Below, piece by piece: positions 9,234 through 35,212 of a stretch of 64,000 nt of DNA. Below the pieces are notes generated by a model, which did no database searches, was not told the DNA's origin, and worked only from the letters and a program-made list of their open reading frames with translations. Made by a program: the position numbers and the translations under genes. The first letter of the stretch is position 1; every line of letters starts with the position of its first letter. The stretch spans positions 1 through 64,000 of the IMG/VR virus record IMGVR_UViG_3300020401_001540. One strand, 5' to 3'. The DNA is from a virus.

Positions 9234-10346
9234 ATGGGTACTTTACGTTTAAAACGAGGCACTAAAACAGCTTTACAAACTACTCCAGGTTTTACACCAG
9301 CTGAAGGTGAACTTGTTTATACCACAGATAGTAAGGAAGTGTTTGTAGGAGATGGGATTACTCAGGGTGGGGTTCCAGTATCTGTAAGCACACAAAATTT
9401 AGAAGATTTAGGCAACGTTCAAGCATTAGCGGCACAGAAAGATCAAATACTTGTATACAACGGATCTAACTGGGCGGCAACAGATAATCCTCAAATTGAT
9501 TTAAGAGGTAACATTTATGCAGATGATTCGACGCTCCTAGTTGATGCAATAAATGGAAAAATAGTTGCTCCAGTAGAAACAAGTTCAGTAACTGCCACAA
9601 ACATTGTTGGTAACCTTGTTGGTGATGTCACAGGATCCGTTACAGGTAATGTGGTAGGAAATACAACAGGAACACACTTTGGTAATGTAACAGGCAACCT
9701 ACTTGGCGATATGCTAGGTAGTGTATTTTCAGATGATTCAAGTGTAATGATAGATTCAGTTGGTAAGAGAGTAGTTGCTAACATTGAATCTCCAAGCATT
9801 ACAACCACTAAAGAAATTTCAGTAACAACGGGTGGTGATAACTCAGTTATACTTGCAACTGGTATTGCAGGTGCAGGATCAACTGGTCCTAAACTAATTG
9901 TTAGAAGTTCTAATGGTACTACAGTGGCTCCAACAGTAAGTGTTGGTGGAACAACTGGTGATGGACTTATGGACTTGCATGGTATGGGATATGATGGCAC
10001 AGATTACAAATTAGCAGGTATGTTAAGGGTAGCGGTTGATCTTGATGCTACTGTATCAGCAAACACTGTTCCAGGAAGAATTAATCTTATTACAGCAAAT
10101 AGTTCAGGTAACCTAATTAATCTTTTAACTTTTAATAGTTCAGGTAACTTAGGTATTGGATTACCTAGACCATTAGAAAAGTTACATGTAAACGGAAATG
10201 CTAGAGCTACAGGATTTGTGCAATTTGGTTCTTTAACAACTACTGAACGTGATGCACTTACAGCCGCTAACGGTATGGTAATTTATAATTCAAGCACTAA
10301 TAAATTTCAAGGTTACGAAAACGGTAACTGGGTCAATTTAGTTTAA
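9234..10346 (+). CDS. Fibre-like virion protein with Mtd_N-type N-terminal domain
   Basis: LRLKRGT...PAEGELVYTTD...VGDG N-terminus, G(N/D)V(T/V)G repeats, GNLGIG...P.EKLHVNG, and C-terminal LTTTERDAL...GMVIYNS. Confidence 0.75.
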   Translation: MGTLRLKRGTKTALQTTPGFTPAEGELVYTTDSKEVFVGDGITQGGVPVSVSTQNLEDLGNVQALAAQKDQILVYNGSNWAATDNPQIDLRGNIYADDSTLLVDAINGKIVAPVETSSVTATNIVGNLVGDVTGSVTGNVVGNTTGTHFGNVTGNLLGDMLGSVFSDDSSVMIDSVGKRVVANIESPSITTTKEISVTTGGDNSVILATGIAGAGSTGPKLIVRSSNGTTVAPTVSVGGTTGDGLMDLHGMGYDGTDYKLAGMLRVAVDLDATVSANTVPGRINLITANSSGNLINLLTFNSSGNLGIGLPRPLEKLHVNGNARATGFVQFGSLTTTERDALTAANGMVIYNSSTNKFQGYENGNWVNLV

Positions 10347-11316
10347 ATTTAGTAATCATTATTTCATCAAGAGTAGTACAAACTTCTTTTCCGCATATAG
10401 TCCATTCTTCGTTGAATATACTTAAATCCTTTTCAAAAATATTACCCACAATTCCTGTGTTAGCACAGGTTCCGTATTGCACATCTCCGTTGGCCTGAAT
10501 AAGTATTTTCTTATTTGTAATAGCACACTTCCAGCCTTTAAACTTATTTGTTCTTTTTTGTAAGAAATCTACCGCATTGGTTTGTATTGTGTCGTCTACC
10601 GTAAAATTAAGATAGTCAGGCATCTTTTGATCGAGTGTTTCTATATATTCTAATTCTTCTTTAGTATAATAATTCAAATCACCATTATCTAATCTTTGAT
10701 GGTAACCTTTTAAATTTCTACTAGATTGATAAGTTTGATTTGTTACTTTAGTCTTTTTGTTATATAAAGGATTAACAGGAATCTTTACAATAGGTGTTTC
10801 TTTAAGTTTCTTTTCTAATTCGAATATTTTATCAAACAAACCTTGTGCTAACATTGCTCTTACTTCAACATTGCCTCCATTGGTTTTAATCATGTTTACA
10901 AATTCTACTATTTTATTAATGTCTGCACTTTCAGGATGAAAACTAATCTTGATATTAATGTTTTTAAAAGATTCTTTACTGTAATCATATATACGTAATG
11001 GTAAACTGCCATTTGTAAATATACCAACACGCATTCCATTTTCGCCCATATAGTTAAACCACTTATGTACGTCCTTGATTAAGAAAGGTTCTCCGCCTGT
11101 GATGTATACTAGGATAGACTTGTTTGCTGGTACTGAGTCTCTTATTTTTTTAGATGCTTTTATTAAATCATCTATTTTAGGTAGCTTAGACTTTACAATA
11201 GGTAAATGATTGCTAGGTTCACAATAACTGCAATCGTAATTACACATATCTGTAGGGCGCCAATGTACAATATAATCTTCGTACCAATCAGATTTTTCTA
11301 TCTTTGATATACTCAT
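10333..11316 (-). CDS. Radical SAM protein with C-terminal Twitch/SPASM-like cysteines
   Basis: CNYDCSYC, TGGEP and FTNGS. C-terminal C...ANGDV..GTC...GNI...C...C. Confidence 0.9.
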   Translation of the reverse strand: MSISKIEKSDWYEDYIVHWRPTDMCNYDCSYCEPSNHLPIVKSKLPKIDDLIKASKKIRDSVPANKSILVYITGGEPFLIKDVHKWFNYMGENGMRVGIFTNGSLPLRIYDYSKESFKNINIKISFHPESADINKIVEFVNMIKTNGGNVEVRAMLAQGLFDKIFELEKKLKETPIVKIPVNPLYNKKTKVTNQTYQSSRNLKGYHQRLDNGDLNYYTKEELEYIETLDQKMPDYLNFTVDDTIQTNAVDFLQKRTNKFKGWKCAITNKKILIQANGDVQYGTCANTGIVGNIFEKDLSIFNEEWTICGKEVCTTLDEIMITKFKLN

Positions 11317-12454
11317 TGTACAGATCTTTCCTGTTTATTTTTCCTTGACCTTTTCTCTTGATTTCATCTACTGAAAATATTTTTGGTATTTTATACCTTA
11401 CTAGTTTGCTTTTCAATTTTTCTAAATCTACTTTACCTACTACTTCTGCATATACTCTATCATATCCAAATACTACTGCATCTTTGGCTCCACATTGTAA
11501 CAGTGCCTTTTCTACTTCGTAAGGCATAATTTTCCAACCACCCTTGATTATTGTTTCTTTTTTCCTACCAGTAATGAATAGATATCCGTCTTTGTCTATG
11601 TGTCCTATGTCTCCCGTAGCAAATCCGTTTACAATTATTTCATTATCGTCTTCAAATTTAATATCAATTTTATCCAACACAAATCCTACACTATTGTATT
11701 TTTGCGGATAGTGCATAATGCTAATAGTTCCTATTTCATTTATGCCATAACTATCAGTTGTAATGCAATTAAAATATTGTTGAGCTTTTATTTTAAAGTC
11801 TTTATACATTGGTGCACCAACGGTTCTTATATGTCTTATAGTCATATTTTCGTAAGGCACATCGGTCTCCATCATTCCATTTAAGACATTAGGACTTCCT
11901 ATAATAAATGTTGGATTTACTTTTGGCCAGTCTTTCCAAGGATTGTTAAGAACATGATAGGTTGCTCCGTACTTGTAACAAGCAGAAAATGTTTGAAACC
12001 CTATACATACCCATAGAGGAATAAAGTTAACAGTGCTGTCTTTATTGCACAAATTTGCATGTATTTGTATGTTATTATCTAAACCGTCTACTTCATATTG
12101 TTGTTTAGTAATTGGTACTATTCTTGGTTTGTCGGTACTACCGCTAGAACATATTCCTACCACTTCATCTTTCGCACACTGATTAAATTTAGGTTCTGGT
12201 AAAGTGTCATTCCATATATCAATATCATAAAAATCTAATTCAAAGGTTTTAGAATCTTTATCTATTATTACCGGACTGCAAACCTTCATAGCACCAAATA
12301 TCTTAAAAATATTTTTCCAATCACTATAAATGCCTATACGACAAGTTTTATCGTATCCCGCCTCTATTAGTTGATTAGTATATTCTTGAGCCAGCTTATC
12401 GAATTCTTGTTTGGTATAAGATTTTCCGCCCTCAAACTTTAGTATTATACTCAC
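11288..12454 (-). CDS. Adenylate-forming (AMP-binding, acyl-CoA ligase-like) enzyme
   Basis: A3 SSGSTDKPR, A5 YGINE, A7 ATGDIG and A8 GRKKETIIKGG.K. Probable GTG start at 12454 after a GAGGA SD (ORF track gives 12469). Confidence 0.85.
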   Translation of the reverse strand: MSIILKFEGGKSYTKQEFDKLAQEYTNQLIEAGYDKTCRIGIYSDWKNIFKIFGAMKVCSPVIIDKDSKTFELDFYDIDIWNDTLPEPKFNQCAKDEVVGICSSGSTDKPRIVPITKQQYEVDGLDNNIQIHANLCNKDSTVNFIPLWVCIGFQTFSACYKYGATYHVLNNPWKDWPKVNPTFIIGSPNVLNGMMETDVPYENMTIRHIRTVGAPMYKDFKIKAQQYFNCITTDSYGINEIGTISIMHYPQKYNSVGFVLDKIDIKFEDDNEIIVNGFATGDIGHIDKDGYLFITGRKKETIIKGGWKIMPYEVEKALLQCGAKDAVVFGYDRVYAEVVGKVDLEKLKSKLVRYKIPKIFSVDEIKRKGQGKINRKDLYNEYIKDRKI

Positions 12455-13118
12455 GTATTTCCTCTTCAATCATGTTTAGGTATTGTAATCTATATTCATT
12501 ATGCGATTTCAATGTCGTAGGTTGTGTCCTGTAACCATAACGTTCACCCAAATATTTATGATTAGGTTTAAGTTGATCAAACTCTTGTTGACTCATTACT
12601 TTTCCTATGTTACCATATCTAACCATATGAAAAGATCTATCAATATCGCTTACCATAAATGCATGATGTACTCCAGGTAATTCATAATGTTTGGAAGGTG
12701 GATGCTTTAACATGTCTCTAAAAATTTTATACTTGTTTTGTCCATTATCTTCTGTACCAGCTATTACCACTGCATTTCTATAATCTACATCAAGCATGAA
12801 TTTTGCAATAGCAATACAGCCAGGATAAAATAGATAATTTTTCAAAAACTTTTTGTGATGAACAATACCTAAAAATGCACCTAAACTAAATCCTATATGT
12901 ATAAGATCACCTTCAGGAAAGTTTACATTAAACATTTCACTAAATGTGCAATCATGATCATCTTGGCGATGACTGTCACTCCACCATAGGTTTGTAATTC
13001 CGTGTGGTGTAAAGTAATCGATAAGATGTACTTCATAACCTTTGTCTTTGAAAAAATCATGGGTGAAGGTTTCGGCTGTGCCTATACCTCCACTACCATG
13101 TGATATAACTATTTTCAT
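12432..13118 (-). CDS. Alpha/beta hydrolase (dienelactone hydrolase-like)
   Basis: HGSGG oxyanion motif, nucleophile GFSLG, Asp in GTED and His in HHAF. Confidence 0.8.
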   Translation of the reverse strand: MKIVISHGSGGIGTAETFTHDFFKDKGYEVHLIDYFTPHGITNLWWSDSHRQDDHDCTFSEMFNVNFPEGDLIHIGFSLGAFLGIVHHKKFLKNYLFYPGCIAIAKFMLDVDYRNAVVIAGTEDNGQNKYKIFRDMLKHPPSKHYELPGVHHAFMVSDIDRSFHMVRYGNIGKVMSQQEFDQLKPNHKYLGERYGYRTQPTTLKSHNEYRLQYLNMIEEEIREYNTKV

Positions 13119-34855: not shown

Positions 34856-35183
34856 CCACTATACCTTCAACACTTCTTTTGTTGCTAATCGCTTTATATC
34901 TGCTGAGAAAATTATCACTAGCTGTTGTGTAATGAGACTTTACTAAATTTTTAAATTCTTCTACTTCAATCTTGACTGGTACATTGTTTTCATCTATAAT
35001 TACAGCATCTTCACTGTCAAGATTGCATACAAAAGAAAACAAAGTTCGATCTGCTTTGAACTTACCGCCAGCATGATAAAAAACCAATTCTTCATCATAC
35101 TGTTCTTTTAGAATCCGTTTTTGGTTGTTCAAAATAGTTGCTAAATTAGAAAAACCAAGAGCTTTTTCTAGCTTTTCATCCAT
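34848..35183 (-). CDS. Hypothetical protein (111 aa)
   Basis: GGAG SD. First gene after the promoter at 35207-35212. Confidence 0.75.
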   Translation of the reverse strand: MDEKLEKALGFSNLATILNNQKRILKEQYDEELVFYHAGGKFKADRTLFSFVCNLDSEDAVIIDENNVPVKIEVEEFKNLVKSHYTTASDNFLSRYKAISNKRSVEGIVDV

Positions 35184-35206
35184 AGTAATACTCCATTAAG
35201 CACTAC

Positions 35207-35212
35207 TATTTA
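35207..35212 (-). promoter_or_regulatory. Putative late promoter TAAATA heading the glycosyltransferase/island operon
   Basis: TATTTA on the + strand, 24 nt upstream of ATG 35183. Confidence 0.55.

Follow-up and report, generated by a model that had tools for sequence, protein, structure and literature searches.

Gene content of the island and its fibre-linked core

The window analyzed here comprises the initial 64 kb of DNA from a linear virus record of 72,864 bp (IMG/VR record IMGVR_UViG_3300020401_001540; CheckV completeness ~15%). Between fibre-like genes on either side it contains an island of 30 open reading frames (ORFs) that fill positions 10333-35183 and leave only three internal gaps longer than 15 nt (76, 168, and 94 nt), matching the roughly 30 tightly coupled genes noted in a preliminary description of the sequence. 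Families were assigned by Pfam and NCBIfam scans of all 30 ORFs, together with PHROG searches, profile comparisons against the PDB, and AF2 models compared by Foldseek. The island is read here, tentatively and at a little under an even chance, as a composite fibre-linked region for building and tailoring glycans in a jumbo myovirus, the likeliest acceptors being the phage's own fibre or baseplate proteins. Its genes are described as an R core (35183-29805 plus 22547), an M cassette (29812-23215), a plus-strand unit, and an L module (20161-10333).

The R core lies on the minus strand and opens with a 111-aa protein (34848-35183) that has no Pfam or PHROG match and whose homologue follows a fibre gene in relatives and in the Ralstonia jumbo phage RsoM2USA. 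Next come two paralogous GT8-like (GT-A) glycosyltransferases (GTs; 34049-34855 and 33240-34052), whose family profile matched glycogenin (GT8) in the PDB (E = 1.5e-6) and has an invariant DxD at D98/D100, and a 180-aa soluble protein (32735-33277) with only a weak DUF3290 match. The following GT-A-like protein (31843-32745; invariant D63/D65, DGD) gave nothing significant when its family profile was compared with the PDB; its fold was then obtained from an AF2 model (pLDDT 89.3), for which the best Foldseek match was the capsid-glycosylating A64R of PBCV-1 (2p73; E = 1.5e-4, TMq 0.28, 13% identity) and the VIA comparison gave the Leptospira GT 6p61_B (Z 10.5, rmsd 3.2, 137 residues aligned). 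A paralogous second GT-A-like protein (29805-30509; 34% identity, E = 4e-38) shares the DGD motif. Between the two lies an N-terminal twitch radical SAM (rSAM) enzyme (30497-31846; NF033640 N_Twi_rSAM, E = 2.2e-92; CNFKCGYC motif with C134/C138/C141), which scores 310 bits against a cutoff of 170, covers positions 3-397 of the 398 in the model, and is 40% identical to its homologue in RsoM2USA. The core is completed by a weakly matched class-I SAM methyltransferase-like protein (22547-23224, minus strand; family profile to MJ0882, 7.3e-5) that closes the long minus-strand unit. Pfam gave no glycosyltransferase; profile and fold comparisons support five GT-like proteins (34049, 33240, 31843, 29805, and, in the M cassette, 28958), all without transmembrane (TM) segments, where four had been counted previously. 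For 31843 and 28958, searches of protein clusters led to unnamed, exclusively viral clusters, and the nearest named ones (GT2 and GT1/GT4) serve as leads only.

The R core is tied to its fibre gene. GT8-like genes lie within 3 kb downstream in 22/22 loci with a homologue of the fibre-like gene at 35216 and, conversely, a 35216-type fibre gene lies near GT8-like genes in 20/20 loci, both counts including several near-duplicate loci. The two also share an upstream motif. TAAATA occurs 51 times on both strands of the window, and nine of these occurrences sit 24-45 nt upstream of a same-strand start, compared with 0.48 expected. One of them (35212-35207, minus strand) lies 29 nt before the start of the 34848 gene and is kept in 6/9 distinct upstream regions of its homologues, the proteins of which are only 43-48% identical; before the homologues of the fibre genes 36145 and 9234 it is kept in 9/9 and 6/6. 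Within the island, TAAATA at 20225 (plus strand) precedes the 20256 start by 31 nt (present in 8/17 relatives), and a TAAGTA at 20185-20180 (minus strand) lies 24 nt before the start of the 19541 gene. A further copy that the preliminary description had grouped with these, at 26265-26260, is probably no promoter: it is only 11 nt from a start codon and is kept in 5/49 relatives. The T4-type octamer TATAAATA is strongly depleted in the window (one observed versus 11.1 ± 3.4 expected), the single copy (37643-37650, minus strand) lying ~30 nt before the fibre gene at 36145-37614. These positions are best read as indicating that the island runs from the promoter class of the fibre genes; that the motif is a late promoter would follow solely from its likeness to the well-established late promoter consensus of T4. 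The link to the virion programme proposed earlier gains support to this extent from the shared motif (conserved in 6/9) and from the position of the island, co-directional behind the baseplate/fibre operon. Among the 24 sequencing runs listed, none is RNA.

Position and promoter class bear directly on host-envelope remodelling, which is the main rival to a virion acceptor and the published view. Here, soluble GTs and tailoring enzymes would act on host lipid-linked O-antigen, lipopolysaccharide (LPS), or capsule intermediates, and rival phages or the phage's own progeny would no longer adsorb. This reading has been put forward for the host recognition cluster (HRC) of pelagimyophages (PMC7029224) and for cyanophage LPS-type clusters (PMC7824862). 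The GTs of O-antigen synthesis are likewise soluble or peripheral, and WbnH (O-antigen) and PimA are among the best GT-B fold matches of 28958. Yet the island has the position and promoter class of fibre genes, not of early or lysogeny genes, and TctA is its sole protein with predicted TM segments: the Pfam and NCBIfam scans of the 30 ORFs gave no match to Wzx, Wzy, Gtr, O-acetyltransferase, or ABC exporter families, such that the membrane components of O-antigen/LPS seroconversion (GtrA/B/C, Wzx flippase, Wzy polymerase, exporter) were not detected. Furthermore, the strict placement of the core beside the fibre gene holds across phages whose hosts are unrelated (marine and Ralstonia), which is hard to reconcile with host-specific envelope chemistry. 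We consider host-envelope remodelling unlikely, though far from negligible.

The bacterial relatives of the N_Twi enzyme add evidence on both sides. A search with 30497 returned 5,902 relatives at E <= 1e-10 in the protein collection, with no functional names among them. Bacterial loci, surveyed with one genome per species (78 loci; 37-57% identity, all but one 37-44%), belong mostly to predatory Bdellovibrionota (Bdellovibrio, Bacteriovorax, Halobacteriovorax). After three phage-like loci had been left out of the neighbor tally, 75 were counted, in which paralogues of the enzyme account for 167 ORFs and form tandem arrays of up to ~8 copies (L189, L199, L200, L205). The recurrent non-housekeeping neighbors are a GT-B protein (13), an ABC transporter ATPase (9), GT2 (8), a carbamoyltransferase (7), and an ABC-2 permease (6). 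A general association with GTs, suggested by the first two, GT2-rich loci (L152 and L191), was dropped because a broader scan with a crude GT2 hidden Markov model (HMM) found GT2-like neighbors in only 9/62 loci. Together, the neighborhoods lend modest support to the notion that the N_Twi family works in glycan pathways, in bacteria exported ones; its occurrence in glycan contexts beside ABC-2 exporters, as in surface polysaccharide loci, favors an envelope target. The three omitted loci (L188, L208, and L212), filed under Fischerella and Neomarinimicrobiota metagenome-assembled genomes (MAGs; 153 and 335 kb), carry fibre genes with the GT/rSAM core and look like jumbo-phage contigs binned into bacterial MAGs.

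The flanking genes place the island within a virion-structural region. On the minus strand, from 63947 down to 35216, the window encodes a baseplate hub/tail lysozyme, a PAAR protein, two wedge proteins, a 5002-aa virion structural protein (42195-57203; phrog_10938) between the baseplate wedge and the fibre genes, and, directly upstream of the island, four fibre-like genes (35216-41562; PHROG tail-fibre matches). Three of the latter, within 36145-41562, have in common an N-terminal domain of ~300 residues (34-36% identity) and differ in their C-terminal parts; a short piece of the same domain occurs in RsoM2USA ORF355. The left boundary is a plus-strand fibre-like gene (9234-10346; phrog_30742, 3.4e-5) that is collinear in relatives. 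The nearest matches of the 1204-aa wedge protein, at ~35% identity, are from Sinorhizobium phage Phosso, Agrobacterium phage Atu_ph07, Salicola phage SCTP-2, and Rak2-like jumbo myoviruses, an affinity that places the phage outside the Kyanoviridae (T4-like pelagimyophages and cyanomyophages). Megablast of window positions 1-12000 against phages gave zero matches, so no cultured phage appears close at the DNA level, and no tRNA genes were found within the window. We conclude from these affinities that the DNA is a fragment of an uncultured marine jumbo myovirus.

The amino-sugar cassette and the left module

The M cassette (minus strand throughout) appears to be inserted between 29805 and 22547. 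Its first gene encodes a GT-B-fold glycosyltransferase-like protein (28958-29812; AF2 model pLDDT 92.7) whose Foldseek matches include UDP-GlcNAc 2-epimerase (3.5e-5), WbnH (4e-5), and PimA (6.5e-5), and whose family profile gave nothing significant against the PDB. Behind it lie an rSAM ORF (28321-28968; TIGR04317, 9e-10) and, with an ATGA overlap, a Cys-rich ORF with six Cys that resembles SPASM below the cutoff (27986-28324; 7.8e-4). The core and the SPASM piece are on two ORFs, rather than on one polypeptide as in a conventional rSAM/SPASM maturase. We read the pair as a probable two-piece rSAM plus SPASM enzyme, conserved as such, and not as a free domain or a pseudogene, because the ORFs adjoin here and in every mapped relative, with homologues in 55/92 and 53/92 loci; their ratios of nonsynonymous to synonymous substitution (dN/dS) are 0.09 and 0.23, respectively.

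The next gene encodes a DegT/DnrJ/EryC1-family sugar aminotransferase of the pyridoxal phosphate (PLP)-dependent type (26912-27985; Pfam, 6.3e-85). Its NCBIfam scores for PseC (1.2e-53; 182 versus a cutoff of 423.5), the LegC family (2.2e-51; 175 versus 420), and DesI (3.8e-42; 145 versus 650) are consistent with membership of the DegT superfamily only. It is followed by a nitroreductase-fold flavoprotein (26263-26910; 2.2e-6), an rSAM enzyme (25418-26254; 2.1e-8; homologue in 65/92 loci) that gave only generic rSAM matches in the PDB (E >= 0.011), a NodU/CmcH-type carbamoyltransferase (23943-25421; 3.4e-68; NCBIfam NodU, 1.7e-38), and a second nitroreductase-fold protein that is a paralogue of the first and scores below the cutoff (23215-23961; 2.2e-4). 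In the loci inspected, homologues of 25418 stand directly beside the carbamoyltransferase, which itself has matches in 195 viral stretches. With the carbamoyltransferase or the rSAM enzyme as query, 92 loci were obtained; the cassette genes are each present in 53-81 of them, their content and order being shuffled among loci. All four rSAM proteins of the island have CxxxCxxC, and none specifically matched BtrN or DesII. Nitroreductase-fold genes, such as that at 20256-21242 (plus strand), repeatedly adjoin rSAM genes in the variable interior of related loci; that these proteins are dedicated reductants of the rSAM clusters is speculation.

The GT-B protein also touches on DNA hypermodification, by which the GTs and tailoring enzymes would decorate phage bases against restriction. 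Phage GT-B enzymes glucosylate DNA, and T4 beta-glucosyltransferase is found at rank 44 (E = 1.1e-3) among the fold matches of 28958; PLP and rSAM enzymes occur in thymidine hypermodification, and the left flank holds a QueE-like rSAM gene (1089-2018, plus strand; phrog_2076, 3.3e-52) alongside an exonuclease, an ATPase, and an HNH-type gene. This QueE-like gene may, by its family, belong to a 7-deazaguanine DNA-modification pathway separate from the island. Within the island the scans gave no match resembling a base hydroxymethylase, kinase, TET/JBP, or DpdA, and the genes stand in a structural operon behind a fibre-type motif, not with replication genes. We regard DNA as a very improbable target.

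The plus-strand unit (20256-22569) encodes a 328-aa nitroreductase-like protein (20256-21242; 3.5e-7) and two paralogous, weakly matched SGNH/GDSL-like proteins (21242 and 21937; 0.0053 and 0.031). The L module follows, mostly on the minus strand. Its first two genes encode a borderline Asp/Arg-hydroxylase-like 2-oxoglutarate (2OG) oxygenase (19541-20161; 2e-4, 21.7 bits versus a cutoff of 22.6) and a 175-aa possible GNAT protein (19017-19544), the profile of which reached GNAT in the PDB only at 0.25. The 358-aa flavin-halogenase-family protein (17951-19027; Trp_halogenase, 3.1e-58) matches PrnA (1.9e-27) and VirX1 (3.7e-23) and keeps the catalytic Lys (PrnA K79; NGFFKYG aligned to NGAFKAA). 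Halogenation nevertheless appears doubtful because Asn replaces PrnA E346 (FIEPLNAT), the WxWxIP motif is altered to WLWSIS, and the C-terminal module is missing (358 versus ~510-550 aa). Homologues at 22-25% identity occur in 81 phage records, mostly cyanophages.

Further along, a 226-aa adenylate-forming domain (17102-17782; AMP-binding, 3.8e-10) ends right after its FATGD motif and is followed by a 250-aa protein with an invariant GSGGH-type motif (16387-17139; no PDB or Pfam match). In 11 distinct relatives, too, the two remain separate ORFs with comparable lengths (dN/dS ~0.065). We rejected the possibility that 16387 supplies the C-terminal half missing from 17102, since it bears no similarity to AMP-binding enzymes and the lengths of both ORFs are conserved. 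A weak methyltransferase-like protein (15661-16398, plus strand; 6e-4) precedes a full-length TctA permease (14151-15584; PF01970, 2.9e-94; nine hydrophobic segments) and a weakly TctC/Bug-like protein with a signal peptide (13115-14158; profile against the PDB: BugD 0.033, TctC 0.25; no Pfam match). No TctB subunit was found: there is neither an ORF nor room for one beside TctA (76-nt gap), and no other TM protein. No genuine cultured-phage homologue was found for the TctA/TctC-like pair. The module ends with a putative alpha/beta hydrolase (12432-13118; GFSLG, a GxSxG motif seen by eye, with no HMM support), an acyl-CoA-ligase-like AMP-binding enzyme (11288-12469; 1.2e-18), and an rSAM enzyme (10333-11316; 1.8e-10) whose 3' end overlaps the convergent fibre-like gene at 9234-10346, to which the L module is anchored. 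Among 40 viral loci found with TctA, TctA itself was counted in 37, 13115 in 34 (adjoining TctA in 34/40), and the methyltransferase 15661 in 38; the ligases (15-19), the hydroxylase/19017 pair (17-19), and the halogenase-family protein (6) are less constant.

Such a complement invites comparison with a secondary-metabolite factory, in which the left and middle modules would make a diffusible small molecule (e.g., an amino-acid or sugar derivative bearing carbamoyl, methyl, and possibly halogen groups) acting as an antibiotic, signal, or cofactor. The adenylate-forming enzymes, the carbamoyltransferase, the rSAM enzymes, the importer, and the halogenase-family protein, with its homologues in phages, all fit such a product. 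However, the island scans detected no nonribosomal peptide synthetase (NRPS), polyketide synthase (PKS), or carrier protein, nor an exporter; the halogenase-family protein is without the substrate module and carries Asn in place of PrnA E346; and five GT-like proteins and the fibre linkage would be left unexplained. There is also almost no intergenic room for a precursor peptide: the three gaps of 76-168 nt hold only hydrophobic or low-complexity ORFs of 19-22 residues, unlike a cluster for a ribosomally synthesized and post-translationally modified peptide (RiPP), although a virion protein could still serve as the maturase substrate. A small-molecule product is, in our view, improbable.

Taken together, the family-level inventory of the preliminary description stands for the four rSAM enzymes (10333, 25418, 28321, and 30497), the two adenylation enzymes (17102 in a short form that relatives keep), the carbamoyltransferase, the DegT aminotransferase, and the halogenase-family protein. 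Its free SPASM/Twitch protein exists as a weak match and is not free, being paired with rSAM 28321. TctA is strongly supported and TctC weak; two of the three nitroreductase folds (20256 and 26263) were recovered above the cutoff; both methyltransferases and both SGNH proteins match weakly; the 2OG hydroxylase falls just short; and the hydrolase received no support from profiles.

Integrity, modularity and the likely acceptor

The island genes show no sign of decay. Against relatives, dN/dS is 0.008-0.31 for the 27/30 genes that had a homologue suitable for the comparison (with dS frequently close to saturation), and the relative synonymous codon usage (RSCU) of each module correlates with that of the structural genes (r = 0.89-0.98). 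L003 (99% identity) spans the right junction, and contigs of three studies span the left, namely X2 (9203-17342, 0 differences), X5 (9665-11043, 0), and X6 (9879-12956, 13); diverged relatives bridge both, and many diverged contigs keep the order 5160-6360-8228-9234, then 10333 onward. Sequence comparison thus supports the view that these are intact viral genes kept under purifying selection. An assembly chimera or decaying captured host DNA, for which only the slightly lower GC content of the island (0.31-0.35 versus 0.34-0.39 in the flanks) could be cited, is hardly credible in the face of independently bridged junctions, matching codon usage, and the low dN/dS values, and is refuted as far as contigs can show. 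Neither the pseudogene-like evolution nor the chimeric join that the preliminary description had named as grounds for rejection was found. The phage is also common: 20 marine DNA runs from nine studies, dated 2014-2025, contain 72% or more of the words sampled from 25400-35200, which amounts to near-identical island DNA.

The comparison with relatives revealed a conserved right core and a left TctA/methyltransferase anchor, between which the interior is reshuffled, gained, or lost (L022, L041, L056, L098, L124); the conserved GT core with a variable interior that the preliminary description had proposed to look for is indeed present. In two runs, contigs (X6 and X8; likeness threshold 90) join ~23772 to ~10276 across 35 intervening letters of other sequence (4-6x depth), and loose contig ends cluster at 10272-10315, at the 3' end of the fibre-like gene 9234-10346; this hints at co-existing strains without the whole 13.5-kb L module. 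Judged by gene content, the island comprises three separable modules (R, M, and L) and not one fixed pathway because RsoM2USA has the R core only, Pelagibacter phage Mosig EXVC030M has the M cassette only, and some contigs skip the left module. The single viral pathway suggested earlier does not survive this comparison.

Modularity also raises the prospect of a patchwork of unrelated auxiliary genes, an insertion hotspot with independent cassettes (e.g., TctA/TctC nutrient import, redox enzymes, and GTs) and no common product. The separate occurrence of modules in Mosig and RsoM2USA, the differing content and order of the interior among relatives, and the variant contigs that skip ~10.3-23.8 kb would all be expected on this basis. 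Against these stand gene order and overlaps that are conserved within modules across many loci, the recurrence of GT, rSAM, and carbamoyltransferase together in phages and some bacteria, and the translational coupling of the genes in long units. We consider an incidental assemblage about as improbable as a small-molecule factory.

For the composite glycan region that we favor, the observations comprise families, folds, motifs, synteny, selection, and distribution, and from these we infer every chemical step, the timing, and the acceptor. In the R core, the two GT8-like and two GT-A-like proteins, the N_Twi rSAM enzyme, and the methyltransferase would assemble and edit a short glycan in the cytoplasm from host nucleotide sugars. 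In the M cassette, the GT-B transferase would add a sugar, on which the rSAM enzymes may convert a hydroxyl to a keto or deoxy function; DegT would aminate that position, and the aminated sugar would be carbamoylated (on the amine or a hydroxyl), methylated, or acylated, with the nitroreductase-fold flavoproteins as possible redox partners. In the L module, TctA/TctC would import a carboxylate that the two adenylate-forming enzymes could activate for acylation, and the 2OG oxygenase, possible GNAT, halogenase-family flavoprotein, rSAM enzyme, and methyltransferase might make further edits. The rSAM-then-DegT logic is modeled by analogy on BtrN/BtrS and DesI/DesII. The phage's own fibres are the likeliest acceptor because the fibre linkage extends over a large evolutionary distance, the promoter class is shared, and membrane machinery is lacking; even so, we put this at slightly under an even chance. 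The fullest version of the scheme, an autonomous virion-glycan factory in which the fibre glycan is built in the cytoplasm and rewritten in place by the tailoring enzymes, with a carboxylate imported by the tripartite tricarboxylate transporter (TTT), is possible but well short of even.

Several points weigh against a fibre glycan. The evidence on product, acceptor, and timing is indirect throughout, and GT folds cannot tell protein from lipid or sugar acceptors. The assignments themselves have soft spots: nucleotidyltransferases score within 1 Z of glycosyltransferases for 31843, the best Foldseek match of 28958 is an epimerase, and several family assignments lie below curated cutoffs. The Pfam and NCBIfam scans found no nucleotide-sugar synthase or dehydratase in the island. 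The linkage of fibre and GT genes could be merely inherited gene order, and the modules need not share one product because they occur independently. Among the bacterial N_Twi loci, a GT2-like ORF lies within 5 kb in only 9/62 eligible cases (1.7-fold density), and the presence of an exporter in the glycan contexts suggests surface polysaccharide, not protein. Finally, the published authors favor a secondary metabolite or a modification of the host's O-chain or capsule (PMC7029224, PMC7824862).

If the product is carried on the fibres, the island would add a hidden layer to what determines host range and protects virions among abundant ocean phages. Its cassettes recur widely in viral contigs (the 195 stretches with the carbamoyltransferase). 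A virion-glycan factory would give the fibres a strain-specific "sugar coat" that tunes adsorption or shields them; as a glycosylation system of a bacterial virus, it would be the first to combine radical-SAM sugar chemistry with a substrate importer of its own, and would provide the first function for the large N_Twi rSAM family. The question is directly testable because the cultured phages RsoM2USA (GT/rSAM core) and Mosig (amino-sugar cassette) carry separate modules.

Comparison with known systems

Comparable islands have already been described computationally, namely the pelagimyophage HRC and the cyanophage carbamoyltransferase/halogenase clusters; the earlier statement that no characterized phage pathway has this combination holds for experimental characterization and not for such descriptions (PMC7029224, PMC7824862). 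The HRC of pelagimyophages and cyanomyophages, which combines GTs, rSAM cassettes, and transport genes and for which a change of the host O-chain was proposed (Zaragoza-Solas et al. 2020, PMC7029224), is likewise a big hypervariable island in the structural region beside tail fibres and a giant baseplate protein. The present island similarly has fibre-like genes on both sides, a giant virion protein upstream, and a variable interior between conserved flanks. Unlike the HRC phages, in which VrlC marks the boundary, the present phage is non-Kyanoviridae and its giant ORF has no VrlC match: BLAST of the 5002-aa ORF against the Mosig VrlC region, and against the tail of RsoM2USA ORF361 (final 1.6 kb only), gave no match.

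At the level of sequence, Mosig has the M cassette at 29-67% identity without the R core, and with its gene order almost unchanged: nitroreductase, GT-B, rSAM plus SPASM piece, DegT, rSAM, carbamoyltransferase (56% identical to 23943), and methyltransferase. It has no match to the GT8/GT-A/N_Twi-rSAM core, nor to the L module except for the 19541 hydroxylase (45% identity); an adjacent gene pair in Mosig is annotated like the 19541 hydroxylase and 19017 GNAT. The cyanophage S-SSM6a-type cluster of 8-12 genes modifying sugars and amino acids, for which capsule decoration or a secondary metabolite was proposed (Iyer et al. 2021, PMC7824862), resembles the island in that it, too, belongs to a large marine myovirus and brings together a carbamoyltransferase, a methyltransferase, and a halogenase-family enzyme with 2OG/cupin hydroxylases; as described, it is without radical SAM, DegT, GT core, TTT transporter, and adenylating enzymes. 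Direct sequence comparison with cyanophages covered two proteins, the carbamoyltransferase (35% identical to that of ACG-2014d) and the halogenase-family protein (22-25%).

The R core finds its counterpart in RsoM2USA (MG752970), where ORF355-347 follow the same gene order at 28-44% identity: fibre-like, small protein, two GT8-like proteins, small protein, GT-A-like, N_Twi rSAM, GT-A-like, and methyltransferase-like. The small protein in the place of 32735 corresponds by position alone, with no sequence match. The block lacks the middle cassette and the left module, its genes all carry hypothetical annotations, and the host is a soil betaproteobacterium. Just upstream of it, ORF356, 359, and 361 encode virion proteins identified by mass spectrometry (PMC8504454).

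Glycosylation of virions by soluble viral GTs provides a functional parallel. In chlorovirus PBCV-1 (A64R) and in the mycobacteriophages, whose capsid and tail-tube glycosylation was reportedly described by Freeman and colleagues in 2023, soluble GTs are encoded with structural genes and the process is cytoplasmic and independent of host secretion; the GTs of the present island are likewise soluble, encoded with structural genes, and co-oriented to them. The resemblance of 31843 to A64R is at the fold level only, and the present system is known from genes and predicted structures alone. Radical SAM, aminotransferase, and carbamoyl chemistry are not known from PBCV-1 or mycobacteriophage glycosylation. 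For these steps the parallels are bacterial: a DegT aminotransferase is paired with a radical SAM enzyme in BtrN/BtrS (butirosin) and DesI/DesII (desosamine), and carbamoylation is performed by TobZ and NodU. The M cassette resembles them in its predicted logic, placing rSAM oxidation or deamination beside PLP transamination, after which a sugar that a GT-B enzyme supplies would be carbamoylated or methylated; unlike the BtrN/DesII-type pathways, it has no 4,6-dehydratase or nucleotidyltransferase, and its NCBIfam scores are far below the equivalog cutoffs. Set beside these systems, what is new here is the non-Kyanoviridae jumbo lineage, the decomposition into three modules, the phage-borne TctA/TctC-like pair, and a DegT cassette in common with a cultured pelagiphage.

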